From the NCBI GenBank assembly GCA_947643225.1, contig CANRVH010000002.1:9628-73627 (forward strand): a stretch of DNA of 64,000 nt, written 5' to 3'. The translations under genes were made by a program, and so were the position numbers. The notes beneath the pieces are model-generated. The model was not told the origin of the DNA. It made no database searches and was given only the letters and a program-made list of their open reading frames with translations. Origin of the DNA: an uncultured Clostridia bacterium (lineage in GTDB: Bacteria > Bacillota_I > Bacilli_A > RF39 > UBA660). This document shows, one piece after another, positions 3,930 to 58,508 of this stretch (its first letter is position 1; each line of letters begins with the position of its first letter).

Positions 3930-4005
3930 GGGGCATTAGCTCAGCTGGGAGAGCGTCACGTTTGCACCGTGAAGGTCAGCGGTTCGATCCCGCTATGCTC
4001 CACCA
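3930..4005 (+). tRNA. tRNA-Ala (anticodon TGC)
   Basis: Cloverleaf folded by hand. Acceptor GGGGCAT/ATGCTCC; D arm GCTC..GAGC; anticodon stem TCACG/CGTGA with loop TTTGCAC; T arm GGTTCGATCC; encoded CCA. Confidence 0.9.
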
Positions 4006-4115
4006 GATTGATAGGAAACTCGAACTTTTCGAGTATTAAGTAAAACGACTTGTCAAAAAGTCGTTTTTATGATATTATGAATATGTCAAGGAAACTTGCA
4101 TAAAATAAAAAAGGG
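4006..4115 (+). repeat. tRNA-adjacent ~110-bp repeat module, copy A (hairpin ACTCGAA..TTCGAGT; terminator-like hairpin AAAACGACTtgtcaaaaAGTCGTTTTT; conserved core ATATGTCAAGGAAACTTGCATAAAATAAAAAAGG)
   Basis: Near-identical to 49627-49738 (after tRNA-Arg) and to the inverted copy at 51873-51988. Starts at the first base after the tRNA CCA. Confidence 0.8.
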
Positions 4116-4205
4116 GAATACTTAACGCTCCAATGTTGAGTACTCGCCACTAATTTGTGTAAGCACTTAATTTACTGAATGTAAATTGAGTGCTTTTCTC
4201 TTATT
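4103..4205 (+). ncRNA. putative small antisense RNA (candidate type I antitoxin) A; convergent with peptide gene 4214-4297
   Basis: TTGCAT -35-like in the module core. Ends in an intrinsic terminator (GCACTTAATTTACtgaatgTAAATTGAGTGC + TTTTCTC, 4165-4203). No ORF. Its 3' end abuts or overlaps the 3' end of the minus-strand peptide gene. Boundaries are approximate. Confidence 0.3.
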
Positions 4206-4213
4206 ATAGATTA

Positions 4214-4297
4214 CTACTTTACTAAAGTAAAAAGTAAGGCTATGAGTAAGATGATAATTAAAATAAGAGATGAGATTAAAAAATCTTTCTTATGCAT
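4214..4297 (-). CDS. 27-aa hydrophobic peptide MHKKDFLISSLILIIILLIALLFTLVK (candidate type I toxin, Fst/SprA1-like)
   Basis: Hand-translated minus-strand ORF with RBS AGGAGG 8 nt upstream of ATG. Paralogous to the peptide at 51710-51793 (MNKKDFLIFALVIIIFLLLLLLFITLI). Not in the ORF track because it is under 60 aa. Confidence 0.5.
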   Translation of the reverse strand: MHKKDFLISSLILIIILLIALLFTLVK

Positions 4298-4420
4298 ATC
4301 ATCAGCCTCCTTTCTTACGAAAGTTGGCAAGCATTCAACTGCTAATATATTCCCTAAGTAAATTATAGCAAGAGATTTGCTGTATAACAATATGATTGAC
4401 TAAATTTTGTCAATTTAATA

Positions 4421-4458
4421 AAAAACACGCTTGTATATTGCCAAATCAATATACATTA
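4421..4458 (+). promoter_or_regulatory. conserved promoter/operator motif copy 1 (AAACACgCTTGtATATTGcCAAATCAATATACATTA), upstream of the DUF1653 pseudogene
   Basis: One of four copies of a ~30-bp motif. It contains the dyad ATATTG-N6/7-CAATAT and lies between -35-like and -10-like hexamers. Confidence 0.45.
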
Positions 4459-4732: not shown

Positions 4733-4860
4733 TTGTTAAACGTCCTCTCTTATGGCACCCTATAGATAGGAAACTTGAACTTTTAATGTTTCGAGTTTTA
4801 ATATGCTTAAATTTATGATAAAATATCTATAGAAATCTAATTGATTTATGTCAATTTAGT

Positions 4861-4896
4861 AAACACACTTGCATATTGTCAAAATCAATATACATT
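4861..4896 (+). promoter_or_regulatory. conserved promoter/operator motif copy 2, upstream of the NUDIX gene
   Basis: AAACACACTTGCATATTGTCAAAATCAATATACATTA. The dyad ATATTG-N7-CAATAT ends ~16 nt before the GGAGG RBS. Confidence 0.45.
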
Positions 4897-16115: not shown

Positions 16116-16243
16116 TGACATCATATATAGTCTTGTGATAGAATCTAGTTGTTTGAAGCCTCATCTTCAAACCGCATTGAAAAGGTTTAAAAACGATATG
16201 TACCTTAAAAGCGAGTCTTAAGATTTTATAAAGGAGGTAAGTT
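16116..16243 (+). promoter_or_regulatory. rplU promoter plus probable ribosomal-protein L21 leader
   Basis: TTGACA (16116) followed by an extended TGtgaTAGAAT -10. Hairpin GTTTGAAGcctcatCTTCAAAC in the 5' UTR, typical of the Firmicutes L21 leader position. Confidence 0.45.
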
Positions 16244-49549: not shown

Positions 49550-49626
49550 ATCCCCGTAGCTCACCTGGATAGAGCAAAAGTTTCCTAAACTTTAGGTAGT
49601 AGGTTCAAGTCCTATCGGGGATACCA
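49550..49626 (+). tRNA. tRNA-Arg (anticodon CCT)
   Basis: Hand-folded. Acceptor ATCCCCG/CGGGGAT; D arm GCTC..GAGC; anticodon stem AAAGT/ACTTT with loop TTCCTAA; T loop TTCAAGT; encoded CCA. Confidence 0.85.
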
Positions 49627-49738
49627 GATTGATAACAAACTCGAACTTTCGAGTAACAAGAGAAAGAACGACTTGTCAAAAAGTCGTTTTTATGTTACTA
49701 TGAATATGTCAAGGAAACTTGCATAAAATAAAAAAGGA
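49627..49738 (+). repeat. tRNA-adjacent ~110-bp repeat module, copy B
   Basis: GATTGATAacAAACTCGAACTTTCGAGTA...AACGACTTGTCAAAAAGTCGTTTTTATG..ATGAATATGTCAAGGAAACTTGCATAAAATAAAAAAGG. Same start position relative to the CCA as copy A. Confidence 0.8.
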
Positions 49739-49827
49739 TACATTTGATTGTGAGAATCAGATGTAATCCCTTGAAGGATAGCATCTGAAATCAACTAATG
49801 TTGAAATCAGATGCTTTGTCTATTTTA
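49725..49827 (+). ncRNA. putative small antisense RNA (candidate type I antitoxin) B
   Basis: No ORF. Terminator GCATCTGAAATCAA..TTGAAATCAGATGC + TTTGTCTATTTT (49781-49827) overlaps the stop of the minus-strand peptide gene. Contains GCATCTGA, complementary to ATCAGATGC in the peptide mRNA 5' UTR. Boundaries approximate. Confidence 0.3.
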
Positions 49828-49897
49828 GGAGTAAAATGATTACTACTAAAAATAGGAGTAATATTATAATAAACTGAAATAGTTCTCTTTTTGTCAT
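49820..49897 (-). CDS. 25-aa hydrophobic peptide MTKRELFQFIIILLLFLVVIILLLK (candidate type I toxin)
   Basis: Internal Met of track ORF 49820-50041, with RBS AAAGGTGGTGA. Charged N-terminus plus a single TM, like peptides A and C. Confidence 0.45.
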   Translation of the reverse strand: MTKRELFQFIIILLLFLVVIILLLK

Positions 49898-50034
49898 AAA
49901 TATCACCACCTTTCTTTTATCTTTGATAAATAGAAAGGGAAAGCATCTGATATTTTCAAACGTATCCATTAACATTATAGCAAACATTTGTTCTTCATAC
50001 AATAAATTTAATACTAAATGTTGTGATAATTTAG

Positions 50035-50060
50035 AAAACACACTTGCATATTGTCATAAT
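50035..50060 (+). promoter_or_regulatory. conserved promoter/operator motif copy 3 (AAAACACACTTGCATATTGTCATAAT), upstream of the MTase pseudogene
   Basis: Left half of the motif is conserved and the -10-like TGtCATAAT sits at the expected position. The right dyad arm is lost. Confidence 0.4.
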
Positions 50061-50102
50061 AAGCAAGATGCATTTGGGTATTAGTTAGAAGGGGAAATTT
50101 AT

Positions 50103-50669
50103 ATGACTTTTAAAGAAAAGGCTAAAAATTATGATAATGAATCAAGAGAAAAACGATCTCAAATCATTGCAGAAAAGATATTGAACATTGTTGGAGATAA
50201 ACAAAACTCTATGATGATGGAATATGGCTGTGCAACTGGATTAATATCGTTTCATTTATATGATAGATTTAAAAAATTAACTTTGATTGATTCTGAAGAG
50301 TAAATAATAAATATAGTAAGAAAAAAAGTTATTAATTATAATATATCTAATGTTATACCTATTAGAAAAGATTTAACAAAAGAAAAATATAATGTAGAAA
50401 AATTTGATGTTATTTTTACTTCATTGACACTTTATCACATAGTAGATGTAAAAAATATGATAAAGACATTTTATAGTATGTTAAATAAAGATGGTATATT
50501 AATTATAGATTTAGATAAAGAAGATGGTAGTTTTCATATGGATACAAAAGATTTTAGTGGTCATAATGGATTTGAACATAAATATATGGAAAATATATTA
50601 AAATCTGTTGGATTGTTTAATATTAAATCTGAAACATTTTTCAATAGCGAAAAGAAGATAAAAAAATAA
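50103..50669 (+). pseudogene. class I SAM-dependent methyltransferase interrupted by one in-frame TAA (50301-50303)
   Basis: Two track ORFs (50103-50303, 50424-50669) share one frame. Read through: motif I EYGCATG, post-I LIDSEE*, motif II FDVIFTS, motif III LNKDGILII. Confidence 0.6.
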
Positions 50670-50732
50670 AGTTATAATACCTCCTCTTTTAGGGTACCTT
50701 AAAGGATGACGTTCAACAACTTCCTTGTAATA

Positions 50733-51485
50733 CTATTTAGAACTATATATAAGATGATAAGGATATCCCCTTTTATCAATATTATCTAAATTTAGGTTTA
50801 AATCTTTAGCTAATTTAAGTAATTTATCATATTCGTTCATAGCGCTTTCATCATAATTTTTAACTTCTATTTCTATAAAATATCCTAAATTTTCTACATA
50901 ATCTAAGGCAATTTCATATTTATTTAAGTAAAAATATGTATCCCTTACTTTATTAACTATTGCGATTTCTTCCATTCCTAGAATTTTAAAAATTTTATCT
51001 AAATTAACTTCATTATCTATTTCAACTTCATATTCATCACAATACATATTGTTGTACCAATTTTTGTAATTTAGTATTTTTTTATTACCTCTTATTCCTA
51101 TTCTAAGCCATTCGTTTATCATTTTTTTACCATCATTTAGAAACCTTCTATGAGTCGGTTGATAATATGCATCAACTTGTTTACTCTCATTTAAAAATTT
51201 AGCATTATTTTTCATAAAAATTTCAATTTTATGAAATTCATTTTTTGAAAGTTTTATTTTTACCTCTGTTTCTATATCATTTTTCTTTGTATTTCCATGA
51301 ATTAAGTAACTAGCATTACAATTAAATAACTCGCTTAATTTAATTATAGTTTCTAAACTGGGTTCTGTTCTATTAGATTCCCAACTTGAAATTGTTTTAT
51401 CAGTTACAAAAATTTTATTTGCCAAATCATTTTGGGTCCATTTTTTATTTTTTCTCAAATCTGCTATTCGATTTCCTAAATTCAT
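50733..51485 (-). CDS. XRE-family HTH fused to CYTH domain (CyaB-like class IV adenylyl cyclase/triphosphate tunnel fold)
   Basis: N-terminal HTH (RIADLRKNKKWTQNDLANKIFVTDKTISSWESNRTEPSLETIIKLSELFN). CYTH motifs ETEVKIKL, VDAYYQPT, WLRIGIRGNKKILNYK, EYEVEID, RDTYFYL, LDYVENLGYFIEIEV. Start assigned to the internal ATG at 51485 (RBS GGTGA); the track ORF extends to 51632 across its own promoter. Confidence 0.65.
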   Translation of the reverse strand: MNLGNRIADLRKNKKWTQNDLANKIFVTDKTISSWESNRTEPSLETIIKLSELFNCNASYLIHGNTKKNDIETEVKIKLSKNEFHKIEIFMKNNAKFLNESKQVDAYYQPTHRRFLNDGKKMINEWLRIGIRGNKKILNYKNWYNNMYCDEYEVEIDNEVNLDKIFKILGMEEIAIVNKVRDTYFYLNKYEIALDYVENLGYFIEIEVKNYDESAMNEYDKLLKLAKDLNLNLDNIDKRGYPYHLIYSSK

Positions 51486-51550
51486 TTTTATCACCAAATT
51501 AATTGTATCATAATACAACATGTTATATGCTCTACATTTTGTAGAATGAT

Positions 51551-51587
51551 AGTCGTTATTTGATTTTGTCAAATTGCAAGTGTGTTT
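51551..51587 (-). promoter_or_regulatory. conserved promoter/operator motif copy 4 (AAAACACACTTGCAATTTGACAAAATCAAATAACGAC), upstream of the HTH-CYTH gene
   Basis: Dyad ATTTG-N7-CAAAT; TATCAT -10-like just downstream. Candidate autoregulatory site. Confidence 0.45.
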
Positions 51588-51709
51588 TCTATATTGAAAA
51601 AATTTAATATAAAACCGCCGATTTAAGAACAAATGTTTACTATAATAAATTTAGGAACGCTTAATAAGTTGGGTGGAGCCAAACTTCATAAAAGAAGGGA
51701 GGCGATATA

Positions 51710-51793
51710 ATGAACAAGAAAGATTTCTTAATCTTTGCTCTAGTAATTATTATCTTCCTTTTACTATTATTGTTATTTATAACTTTAATATAA
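51710..51793 (+). CDS. 27-aa hydrophobic peptide MNKKDFLIFALVIIIFLLLLLLFITLI (candidate type I toxin, paralog of peptide A)
   Basis: RBS AAGGGAGG. TATAAT -10 at 51643-51648. The 3' end abuts the hairpin TCCACCTAA..TTAGGTGGA. Confidence 0.5.
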   Translation: MNKKDFLIFALVIIIFLLLLLLFITLI

Positions 51794-51885
51794 AAGAAAT
51801 CCACCTAACTCTAGCATAGATTTAGGTGGAACCAAATACATGGTGACACTCAACACTGCAATATTGAATGTTCCTTTTATTTTAT
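51787..51885 (-). ncRNA. putative small antisense RNA (candidate type I antitoxin) C
   Basis: Minus-strand terminator TCCACCTAAatctatgctagagTTAGGTGGA + TTTCTTTTAT. The segment TTTGGTTCCACCTAAA can pair with 15 contiguous nt (2 G-U) of the peptide mRNA 5' UTR (TTGGGTGGAGCCAAA). Its 5' part (CAGTGTTGAGTGTC) is homologous to sRNA A (CAATGTTGAGTACTC). Confidence 0.35.
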
Positions 51886-51988
51886 GCAAGTTTCCTTGAC
51901 ATATTGACCATAACATAAAAACGCACCTTTATCAAGTACGTTTTTTAATTACTACTCGAACTCTCACTATTTTATGTATTCGAGTTTT
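51873..51988 (-). repeat. repeat module, copy C (inverted orientation, no adjacent tRNA)
   Basis: Reverse complement carries ACTCGAA..TTCGAGT, then AAAAAACGTAC..GTGCGTTTTTATG and the identical core ATATGTCAAGGAAACTTGCATAAAATAAAAGG. Confidence 0.75.
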
Positions 51989-52088
51989 AATTTGAACAAA
52001 ATATGATATTGCCAATAAATATTTTGCTAATAATAAAAAATATGATATGATATAAAACATCAAATAAAGGGGGAGGAATGAAAAAAGT

Positions 52089-52433
52089 ATGAAAATTTAT
52101 AGGGATATACCTCTTTTTTTAAGAAAAAGAGGAGGTCACGAATTTAATAGTTTAGCAGACGATCTATCTGAAGAAGGAAAATATTTCTATTTATTTGCTG
52201 AAGATGCAATTATACAGGGAAATGATTTACTTGGAAAGTATCATAGATTAACAATAGATACCTTTCTAGTTGTCGAATATGACATTCCAAAAGAAATAAT
52301 TTTAAAAAACATTGGATATGGTGATTATACTGAAGGAATTAATCCCTTATATTTAATAGAATCGTATATTGAAAGGAGTGACTTAGGTAACAAAAAAACA
52401 ACCACATATGAAATACCTGACGAAAAGAATTAA
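52089..52433 (+). CDS. hypothetical protein (114 aa)
   Basis: Clean ORF with RBS GGGGGAGG; no motif. Confidence 0.4.
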   Translation: MKIYRDIPLFLRKRGGHEFNSLADDLSEEGKYFYLFAEDAIIQGNDLLGKYHRLTIDTFLVVEYDIPKEIILKNIGYGDYTEGINPLYLIESYIERSDLGNKKTTTYEIPDEKN

Positions 52434-52498
52434 AGATTTTAAGTCAATCTTTAAAAGATTCTTTAAAATTAACACAGGAATATATAAGTTTATCTGAT

Positions 52499-52846
52499 AT
52501 GTTTTTTTATCTTGATTGCTTTGACACTCATGATTTAAAATCAATAATAGATAATGAAGAAAAAATTCAAAATACAATTATAGATAGCCCATTTTATCAA
52601 AGTTTTATGAATGAAAATGGAGAGCTAATTGAATCACCTTACATTACTGGAAAAATAATACCAGTCAACATGAATTTTATGTCTCACAAATTAAAAAATG
52701 ATGATGAAATTACTAAGTATTATCAAAGCAAAGGAATAAATTGTGATTTTTCTAAAGAACAACAAGAATATAAAGATGAATTATTATATTTTATAAAGAA
52801 ACAAGAAAAAGTAAAAGTAAAAAGTTTGTTAGAAAAGAAAAAATAA
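52499..52846 (+). CDS. hypothetical protein (115 aa)
   Basis: ORF after 52089-52433 on the same strand; no motif. Confidence 0.35.
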   Translation: MFFYLDCFDTHDLKSIIDNEEKIQNTIIDSPFYQSFMNENGELIESPYITGKIIPVNMNFMSHKLKNDDEITKYYQSKGINCDFSKEQQEYKDELLYFIKKQEKVKVKSLLEKKK

Positions 52847-57740: not shown

Positions 57741-58508
57741 ATGGAAAATATTTTAAAAATATCACAAATAGAAAAATATTATGGAAACAGATCATCCTTA
57801 ACAAAAGCAATTGATAACATCTCATTCGAAGTAGAAAAAGGAGAATTTGTAGCCATTATGGGTGCATCAGGAAGTGGAAAAACAACGTTATTAAATGTCA
57901 TTTCAACAATTGATAAAGTAACAAGTGGTCATATTTATGTAGCGGGAGAAGATATCACCAAATTAAAAGGAAATAACCTAAATAAATTTAGAAGGGAAGA
58001 ATTAGGATTTATTTTTCAAGACTTCAACCTATTAGATACTCTAACTGCTTATGAAAATATCGCACTAGCTTTGTCCATTCAAAATAAAGATGCAAAAGAA
58101 ATAGACAAAAAAATCAAAAAAGTCGCAGAAGATTTAGACATTAAAAACATTTTAAAAAAATATCCCTATCAAATGAGTGGAGGACAAAAGCAAAGGGTTG
58201 CATCAGCAAGAGCGATTATCACTGATCCTAAACTTGTTTTAGCTGATGAACCAACAGGAGCTTTAGATTCAAAATCATCAAAAATGCTGTTAGAAAGATT
58301 TAACTATTTAAATAAAGAATTAAAAACAACAATTCTAATGGTTACTCATGATGCCTTTACCGCCTCTTATGCTTCACGTGTAATTTTCATTAAAGATGGC
58401 AAAATATTTAACGAAATAAATAGAGGAAATGGTTCTCGAAAAGAGTTTTTTGATTCAATTATCAATGTTGTAACTTTACTTGGTGGTGACTTAAATGATG
58501 CTCTTTAA
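57741..58508 (+). CDS. ABC transporter ATP-binding protein (BceA/MacB-type)
   Basis: Walker A GASGSGKTT, signature MSGGQKQR, Walker B LADEPTGALD. Confidence 0.9.
   Translation: MENILKISQIEKYYGNRSSLTKAIDNISFEVEKGEFVAIMGASGSGKTTLLNVISTIDKVTSGHIYVAGEDITKLKGNNLNKFRREELGFIFQDFNLLDTLTAYENIALALSIQNKDAKEIDKKIKKVAEDLDIKNILKKYPYQMSGGQKQRVASARAIITDPKLVLADEPTGALDSKSSKMLLERFNYLNKELKTTILMVTHDAFTASYASRVIFIKDGKIFNEINRGNGSRKEFFDSIINVVTLLGGDLNDAL

Follow-up and report, generated by a model that had tools for sequence, protein, structure and literature searches.

In the bsrG/SR4 toxin-antitoxin system of Bacillus subtilis, nucleotides (nt) 1-35 of the bsrG mRNA pair with nt 232-262 in helix P1, the Shine-Dalgarno (SD) sequence is held in a helix of 4 base pairs (bp), and the small RNA (sRNA) SR4, complementary to the 3' end of the mRNA, changes the SD helix and promotes a decay that depends on RNase III (PMC3834814). 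A locus of comparable design was analyzed in 64,000 nt of contig CANRVH010000002.1, from an uncultured Clostridia bacterium; this stretch, the G+C content of which is 27%, is called the window, and positions are counted from its first letter. Positions 51640-51988 hold what looks like a cassette made up by the gene of a predicted toxin-like membrane peptide of 27 residues and by a convergent antisense RNA, one of three copies in the window (locus C, the others being loci A and B). The cassette family seems to occur in many uncultured gut Bacilli, and looks like bsrG/SR4 in design, not in sequence. Locus C is probably (we set the probability at about 0.68) a chromosomal type I toxin-antitoxin-like module, bsrG/SR4-like in its RNA architecture and belonging to a family new to all libraries searched.

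The likeness to bsrG/SR4, as to txpA/RatA, bsrE/SR5 and yonT/SR6, resides in a convergent sRNA complementary to the 3' part of the mRNA of a small hydrophobic peptide. Such complementarity spans ~75-125 nt in bsrG/SR4-type systems, and the locus C sRNA is fully complementary to ~95 nt of the 3' untranslated region (UTR) of the toxin mRNA. Also in common are the closure of the toxin mRNA by a helix between its first ~35 nt and a segment preceding the terminator, the location of the SD in a short local helix, and an sRNA made up by independent stem-loops, with a terminator hairpin beside the toxin stop codon region (PMC3834814). Neither peptide nor RNA sequences are similar (no Pfam, NCBIfam or Rfam match at E up to 10). 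Since the architecture matches and the sequence does not, the cassette has been filed as a new family of a known kind, not as a sequence member. Cassette peptides, 24-30 amino acids (aa) long, are charged at the N-terminus and show little or no polarity at the C-terminus, whereas BsrG has 38 aa and reportedly carries a polar, Lys-rich C-terminus; the cassette sRNA is ~110 nt long, SR4 183 nt. Cassettes differ further because the 5' UTR is a near-copy of the sRNA middle hairpin, because one invariant sRNA 5' stem-loop serves at least five toxin subfamilies, and because the loci are chromosomal, often beside tRNA genes, and not in prophages.

Similarities to other systems are more limited. Like the cassette, the par locus (fst/RNA II) of Enterococcus faecalis pAD1 has convergent promoters, a direct repeat providing sRNA-5' UTR complementarity outside the overlap, an intramolecular helix hiding the extreme mRNA 5' end, and a 5' stem-loop sequestering the SD (PMC7472228). 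The bidirectional terminator shared by the two par transcripts is replaced in the cassette by two staggered one-way terminators and a 95-nt overlap; moreover, the 15-nt direct repeat of the cassette ends 12 nt upstream of the SD, apparently short of the translation initiation region, and its predicted pairing is energetically unfavourable. The marks of Fst/Ldr toxins are PXXXG within the transmembrane helix, a conserved Trp and a C-terminal tail bearing charges (PMC7472228). Cassette peptides lack PXXXG, Trp and tail alike, and have no Fst_toxin Pfam match; Pro, Gly and Trp are absent from all three peptides of the window, the C-termini of which carry 0-1 charged residues. In hok/Sok and aapA1/IsoA1 the toxin mRNA is likewise closed by a long-distance 5'-3' interaction, with a sequestered SD. 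There, however, the antisense RNA targets the 5' region, and the closed mRNA needs 3' trimming for activity, whereas the cassette sRNA would target the 3' partner of the closing helix, and masking the cassette 3' UTR leaves the predicted SD accessibility unchanged. In sprA1/SprA1AS of Staphylococcus aureus, finally, the 3' ends overlap, and additional, non-overlapping complementarity exists to the 5' region of the toxin mRNA. The SprA1 overlap is said to be short, and the functional pairing to be the one in trans, covering SD and start codon; locus C combines a long overlap with a trans site that stops short of the SD and is energetically unfavourable.

The peptide gene and its predicted antisense RNA

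The TATAAT box, ribosome-binding site (RBS) AAGGGAGG, open reading frame (ORF) of 27 aa and terminator hairpin reported in the original prediction are all present at 51640-51988 (Table 1). An mRNA of ~230 nt, extending roughly from 51653 to 51885 on the + strand, would encode a single-helix membrane peptide, the presumed toxin; a convergent sRNA of ~110 nt, extending roughly from 51900 to 51790 on the - strand, is the predicted antitoxin. Type I toxins being taken as hydrophobic peptides of <60 aa that contain a transmembrane-length segment and have a gene for a complementary sRNA at the same locus, the peptide, which has ~22 hydrophobic residues in a row within its 27 aa, agrees in size and hydrophobicity, and an sRNA gene is predicted from promoter, terminator, covariation and G·U strand asymmetry. 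The T-run said to overlap the peptide stop (51791-51793) does so on the - strand only, where the reverse complement of 51786-51799 forms the U-run following stem-loop 3 (SL3) of the sRNA. The limits of the antisense unit had to be redrawn: CAGTGTTGAGTGTC, previously assigned to the 5' part of the sRNA, belongs to the middle hairpin as its 3' arm, the predicted sRNA start being at 51900, and the unit does not extend to 51988, as 51947-51992 lies outside it and is a relic of the hairpin flanking tRNA genes at loci A and B.

The paralogy of the three copies is real. Loci A, B and C align over ~450 nt, with a mean column identity of 72%, and have in common an invariant block of 31 nt, TTTTATTTTATGCAAGTTTCCTTGACATATT. 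Related loci were gathered with a 20-mer from this block, taking one genome per species; at least 119 were obtained, and family-wide counts rest on the loci matched by the 20-mer. A consensus sRNA promoter, derived from 106 distinct upstream sequences, reads TTGnnA, 17 nt, TGtTATTAT, 6 nt, G(+1). A hairpin followed by a U-run is found ~100-120 nt from the predicted sRNA start in 110/114 loci. The fold of the locus C sRNA has a z of -5.2, and the sRNA scores 89.9 bits with the covariance model, its sequence being in the training set.

Covariation was tested in the middle hairpin (SL2) and in SL3 on an alignment of 101 distinct sRNA sequences. Changes on both sides were seen in 13 of the 14 pairs of the two hairpins; 95.9% of the cells are paired, vs. 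84.4% after shuffling of columns and 25-40% with shifted partners, and the covariation score is 0.509 vs. 0.273. The two strands can be told apart because a G·U pair of the sRNA strand turns into a C·A mismatch on the other: 225 cells (144 + 81) hold G·U pairs of the sRNA strand, only 16 (1 + 15) pairs of the opposite kind, a ~14-fold difference. Among the sequence data, this asymmetry is the most decisive result for a separate antisense RNA, and such a transcript, though predicted, is strongly indicated at locus C. Both hairpins are also more stable on the sRNA strand than on the mRNA strand. Downstream of SL3 the U-run takes up 5.4 of 9 positions on the sRNA strand vs. 2.65 of 9 on the mRNA strand, while the order is reversed downstream of SL2, where the mRNA strand has 7.7 of 9 and the sRNA strand 2.7 of 9. 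These strand-specific U-runs indicate that the two transcripts would stop at staggered one-way terminators, overlapping by ~95 nt. On the mRNA strand, C·A mismatches affect ~24% of SL2 cells, yet the best U-tract follows; the terminator stem may be either the distal R1 helix described below or the local hairpin.

Table 1. Positions in the window of the features of locus C and of the two paralogous loci
Feature	Position	Strand	Remarks
-10 box of the toxin mRNA promoter	51641-51646	+	TATAAT
R1, predicted extreme 5' end of the toxin mRNA	51653-51666	+	AGGAACGCUUAAUA; cis pairing with 51862-51875, directly before the mRNA U-tract
R2	51669-51683	+	UUGGGUGGAGCCAAA; three possible partners
Local 5' UTR hairpin	51684-51709	+	CUUC/GAAG plus GCC/GGC; partly sequesters the SD AAGGGAGG
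SD	51695-51702	+	AAGGGAGG; ATG begins 7 nt later
Toxin-like ORF, 27 aa	51710-51793	+	MNKKDFLIFALVIIIFLLLLLLFITLI; charged N-terminus, then one transmembrane-length hydrophobic stretch
Predicted antitoxin sRNA, ~110 nt	51788-51900	-	SL1, A-rich linker, SL2, small hairpin, SL3 terminator
SL3, sRNA intrinsic terminator hairpin	51800-51830	-	TCCACCTAA...TTAGGTGGA; all 8 pairs covary
SL2 region, then UUUUAUUUU	51845-51884	+ and -	+, likely mRNA terminator/3' end and R1/R2 partner; -, sRNA middle hairpin
SL1, sRNA 5' stem-loop	51900-51886	-	GUCAAGGAAACUUGC; invariant in the family
sRNA promoter	51907-51935	-	TTGATA (51935-51930), 17 nt, TGtTATGGT (-10 TATGGT 51912-51907); extended -10
Imperfect hairpin	51917-51946		AAAAACGCAC...GTACGTTTTTT; loop region holds the sRNA -35
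Locus A	4085-4355		toxin ORF 4297-4214 (-), MHKKDFLISSLILIIILLIALLFTLVK; sRNA 4085-4202 (+)
Locus B	49708-49970		toxin ORF 49897-49820 (-), MTKRELFQFIIILLLFLVVIILLLK; sRNA 49708-49822 (+)

Predicted closure of the mRNA and candidate sites of contact with the sRNA

Two segments of the 5' UTR, R1 and R2, are complementary to the 3' and to the 5' arm (51847-51854) of SL2, respectively. R1 begins a few nt, mostly 4-7, 3' of a -10-like box, which is exactly TATAAT in 65/85 cassettes, and is thus placed at or beside the predicted mRNA 5' end. R2 may pair in cis with 51847-51854 (through its 5' half, from 51668), in cis with 51800-51810, or in trans with sRNA residues 51836-51822. The minimum free energy fold of the locus C mRNA includes the R1/R2 closure and has a z of -6.25. 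Family-wide duplex energies, computed on alignment-defined segments, are -32.3 kcal/mol for the 5' UTR and its own SL2 region and -17.0 kcal/mol for partners from other subfamilies, 90% of the cognates falling beyond the 5th percentile of the controls. Consensus folds of four subfamily groups all keep the R1 pairing and include 13-30 long-range 5'-3' pairs each; on the mRNA strand such pairs are G·U in 115 cases and A·C in 21, and 4-7 pairs per group feature more than one Watson-Crick type. At the level of predicted structure, covariation shows the mRNA to be closed by pairing of its initial 25-30 nt (R1 + R2) to the 30-40 nt that precede the U-tract.

An anti-SD (CCUCC, CCUCU or CCCUUUC, for example) comes just after R2 in all subfamilies, and the SD core is predicted to be ~85% paired (unpaired probability ~0.15). 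Gating of the RBS by the 5'-3' closure was considered and discarded, the SD being unpaired with a probability of 0.147 in the full-length mRNA and of 0.165 with the 3' UTR masked (Wilcoxon p = 0.43). A GUUGAGUGUC-like word is found three times per cassette, in the 5' UTR and in the 3' arms of sRNA SL2 and SL3 (51668-51677, 51845-51854 and 51822-51831 in locus C); because of this repetition, the UTR and both hairpins of the sRNA resemble duplicates, within the cassette, of a single unit.

If bsrG/SR4 is taken as the model, the closed toxin mRNA would be a stable, poorly translated form, and the sRNA would bind the 3' UTR, probably contacting complementary loops first. A long sRNA-mRNA duplex would then form, displacing the 5' end and providing, to judge from its length, a substrate for RNase III, and the toxin mRNA would be degraded and/or left untranslated. 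When sRNA and mRNA are cofolded, the overlap duplex dominates, at -198.9 kcal/mol vs. -102.8 kcal/mol for the separate RNAs.

The original prediction located the regulatory contact elsewhere, and described an sRNA-5' UTR complementarity that could be reproduced: R2 and the - strand RNA UUUGGUUCCACCUAA (51836-51822) form 15 contiguous pairs, 13 Watson-Crick and two G·U, with a duplex energy of -22.7 kcal/mol, and runs of at least 15 were obtained in only 3/3000 dinucleotide shuffles of the UTR (P ~0.001). According to this explanation the sRNA would repress mainly by pairing its linker and terminator 5' arm to 51669-51683, in a par/Fst- or SprA1-like manner, translation initiation being blocked or remodelled. 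SprA1AS is reportedly a precedent for pairing away from the overlap. For par RNA II, pairing outside the overlap has been described (PMC7472228). The match in locus C runs 6 nt past the hairpin stem into the linker, an extension which the cis partner 51800-51810 leaves unexplained, and gapped versions of it are retained in related subfamilies. Family-wide, cognates are somewhat better than controls (-15.7 vs. -11.0 kcal/mol), yet with a z of -1.35 and only 29% of them past the 5th percentile of the controls, against 90% for the cis helix, the trans pairing comes out behind both cis alternatives. In locus C, 12.1 + 16.0 kcal/mol must be spent on opening the two sites, for a duplex energy of -22.7, which leaves a net +5.4 kcal/mol, and ~+0.7 even on a nascent mRNA. 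The sRNA site is buried in the stem of the sRNA terminator, the mRNA site is occupied by the conserved 5'-3' helix. The pairing leaves the SD uncovered, stopping 12 nt upstream of it, and equivalent contiguous runs are only 7 bp long in locus A and 9 bp in locus B. Among the transitions between repeat copies, those giving G·U in trans outnumber those giving A·C by 111 to 35, a bias for which the Watson-Crick complementarity of R2 to the 5' arm of SL2 is an equally good explanation; cis and trans pairing cannot be told apart by this test of G·U direction. Repression mainly through the 5' UTR is, on balance, unlikely.

R1 and R2 together are in effect a copy of sRNA SL2 and linker, and the 15-bp match would arise because the 5' UTR mimics the sRNA, both being complementary to the same 3' UTR stretch; R2 also resembles the 3' arm of SL3, which accounts for the 15-bp match to the sRNA and for an 11-bp match in cis to 51800-51810. 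The 15-bp trans pairing may be a secondary contact. Of the type I toxin-antitoxin-like locus first described, the hydrophobic peptide gene, the convergent antisense RNA and the three paralogs are retained, 5' UTR pairing as the main mechanism is not. The counter-explanation raised with it, that the complementarity is just the 5'-3' fold of the mRNA and that no separate antisense transcript exists, is correct by half: the complementarity does coincide with that fold, yet a separate antisense transcript is strongly indicated.

Related loci, peptide coding and alternative explanations

The related loci are all located in genome bins of gut origin, animal or human. The label is Bacilli, Tenericutes or Erysipelotrichaceae for most bins and lies outside Bacilli for a few (Clostridia, Roseburia, Muribaculaceae, Bacteroidaceae); some bear the names Candidatus Ventrenecus, Onthousia or Faecimonas. 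Together with the low G+C, the labels suggest reduced-genome Bacilli of the RF39 type as hosts. Of 108 complete cassettes, 86 have a hydrophobic ORF of 24-30 aa, provided with a GGAGG-type SD and placed upstream of the motif at a constant distance. At least five subfamilies can be distinguished among the peptides (MxKKDFLI.., MTKRExSQFIIILLLF.., MKTKTFIxKVLKLIAIILFLL..IKK, MRKxEKYLCTIIILLIIV..IKIVPTV and MKKKDLLISFLILIIILLIVSLMIL.IKK). Variable sites number 77, 35 and 87 at codon positions 1, 2 and 3, T occupies the second position in 83% of the core codons, 2518 codon differences are synonymous and 3756 nonsynonymous, and ~70% of the residue changes swap hydrophobic for hydrophobic. By these sequence measures the family ORF looks like a coding one. 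About 20 cassettes retain the antisense unit and have lost the ORF, or have a broken one, by deletion, a stop codon or loss of the start codon, or have no ORF at all; antisense units being kept while ORFs decay, this is the pattern expected of toxin-antitoxin decay. Pairs of cassettes 330-1200 nt apart, at times from different peptide subfamilies, were observed in L016, L037, L056, L067 and L071. In L071 the distance is only 331 nt, so that the next toxin promoter directly follows the previous sRNA promoter.

The family went undetected in the collections searched. With Rfam, the whole window gave at gathering thresholds two tRNAs and an L21 leader only, none of them at locus C, and at E up to 10 no match was obtained at locus C over 51000-52500. 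A search of Rfam and toxin databases for Fst/SprA1-like hits had been proposed; Rfam gave none at locus C, and Pfam no Fst_toxin match. Pfam, NCBIfam (E up to 10) and PHROGs returned noise-level transmembrane matches to the peptides, which are so short that HMMER is weak on them. None of eight family peptides is present, by exact look-up, in a collection of 15 billion proteins; blastn of the cassette against plasmid and phage collections and a search of IMG/VR viral contigs with the 20-mer gave no match, and the cassette family did not turn up in literature searches.

These negative results bear on a second explanation, according to which the cassette is a gene for a non-toxic small membrane protein with a cis-antisense regulator, and not a toxin-antitoxin module. 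The peptide does match no toxin family and lacks a charged C-terminal tail, and the loci are chromosomal rather than plasmid- or phage-borne. Yet they have features characteristic of type I toxin loci, exist in several copies, some of them in tandem, and frequently occur as antisense-only copies or with a broken peptide ORF and a retained sRNA; several layers directed against translation are predicted (SD sequestration, a closed mRNA), and the five or more divergent peptide subfamilies have only hydrophobicity in common. A harmless product is quite unlikely. Far less probable still is that no antisense RNA exists and that complementarity and hairpins reflect the fold of a longer + strand mRNA alone, an explanation in keeping with the strong and conserved 5' UTR-3' UTR pairing, and at odds with the 225 G·U cells of SL2/SL3 valid on the - strand only (vs. 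16 of the opposite kind), with an SL3 U-run confined to that strand, with an extended -10 promoter conserved at a fixed distance, with an invariant 31-nt block lying beyond the mRNA U-tract, and with sRNA-only loci maintained in the absence of any ORF.

Several observations do weigh against a bsrG/SR4-like module at locus C. Its toxin promoter has a poor -35 (CCGATT, where TTGTAT is found in locus B and TTGTTA in locus A, with 17-nt spacing). C·A mismatches make SL2 weaker on the sense strand (mean -7.7 vs. -9.7 kcal/mol), and with so weak a terminator the toxin mRNA may read through to the hairpin at 51917-51946. The peptide ends in ITLI, without the polar or charged C-terminal tail usual in known type I toxins. 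As masking of the 3' UTR does not change the predicted SD accessibility, the computations lend no support to an SR4-like effect on translation. The 20-mer that served to collect every related locus is part of the sRNA itself, and motif conservation is partly a matter of ascertainment; positions flanking the 20-mer (-10 box, TG, A-rich tract) are likewise 80-100% conserved. The positions of the two transcription starts and of the two 3' ends were deduced from the geometry of promoters and terminators; the transcripts themselves, the toxicity of the peptide and the involvement of an RNase are inferred throughout.

A tentative and rather doubtful extension of the bsrG/SR4-like design is that of a modular antitoxin, in which an invariant 5' handle is joined to a variable body addressing the cognate 3' UTR, the 5' UTR mimic competes with the sRNA for one 3' UTR segment, and the sRNA:mRNA ratio decides the fate of the mRNA. 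The handle would consist of the GUCAAGGAAACUUGC stem-loop and the A-rich tract, identical in at least five unrelated-looking toxin subfamilies and in >100 species; its role would be recruitment of a host factor (RNase or chaperone) or shielding of the 5' end. The sRNA/mRNA ratio would settle whether the mRNA is opened and destroyed or stays closed and stable, and the cassettes may spread preferentially into the 3' flanks of tRNA genes.

Should locus C be the toxin-antitoxin-like module proposed, a large new family, present in several copies per genome, would populate a common but uncultured gut lineage, and would offer ~100 natural variants of a bsrG/SR4-like design, with enough covariation for tests of closure vs. 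antisense binding. The covariance model and the peptide patterns could be used for annotating such loci in metagenomes.

Paralogs and neighbouring elements

The covariance model search of the window identified loci A, B and C, all three in the training set, and nothing else significant. Region 57902-58017 (18 bits), near a small hydrophobic ORF (58150-58079), was rejected as a fourth copy because it sits within an ABC ATPase gene on the opposite strand. The one other Rfam match besides the tRNAs, L21_leader at 16159-16228 (+) (38.1 bits, gathering score 36), is an ordinary ribosomal-protein leader unrelated to the cassette.

The hairpin at 51917-51946 may be a back-stop terminator; its counterpart at loci A and B is a stronger hairpin, AAAACGACTTTTTGACAAGTCGTTTT. 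In 51947-51992 a hairpin, ACTCGAA..(18 nt)..TTCGAGT, matches the tight hairpin which flanks the tRNA genes of loci A and B. No tRNA gene follows it at locus C, which thus looks like the duplicate of a tRNA-linked copy. A tRNA-Ala gene (3930-4005) is located near locus A and a tRNA-Arg gene (49550-49626) near locus B, and the spacer between sRNA promoter and tRNA is conserved at both loci up to the CCA end of the tRNA. A tRNA gene (Leu, Thr, Met, Arg, Ala or Lys) lies ~76 nt past the sRNA promoter in 44/115 cassettes, always in the same direction as the sRNA. The linkage may mean that cassettes spread to sites 3' of tRNA genes, or that transcription of the tRNA reads through into the sRNA.

A block of 22 nt, located ~60 nt 5' of the toxin -10, occurs in four copies, at 4419-4440, 4857-4878, 50032-50053 (-) and 51570-51591 (+). 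This upstream block, CAATATGCAAGTGTGTTTTCTA, was discarded as an obligatory part of the cassette, being found in only 12/85 related cassettes. At locus C, the region of the sRNA 5' end and promoter (51885-51931) is directly repeated, at 74-76%, in the block and its adjoining downstream sequence (51575-51625); repetition of the sRNA start region suggests a relic of a tandem neighbour. A solo junction is found at 4760-4880 (-), where the upstream block, present as CAATATGCAAGTGTGTTTACTA (4857-4878), passes directly into what is left of an ACTCGAA...TTCAAGTTTCCTATC hairpin. The latter normally sits between a cassette and its tRNA; here neither ORF nor sRNA intervenes, and the site may be that of an emptied, or never filled, cassette.

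Loci B and C are inverted relative to one another (window 49700-51900), their toxin promoters pointing away from each other and being separated by 1.5 kb. The interval contains two adjacent short ORFs (50103-50303 and 50424-50669) and a helix-turn-helix (HTH)-CYTH gene at 50733-51485 (-). The first short ORF includes EYGCATG, which resembles methyltransferase motif I, and a broken gene may be represented here.

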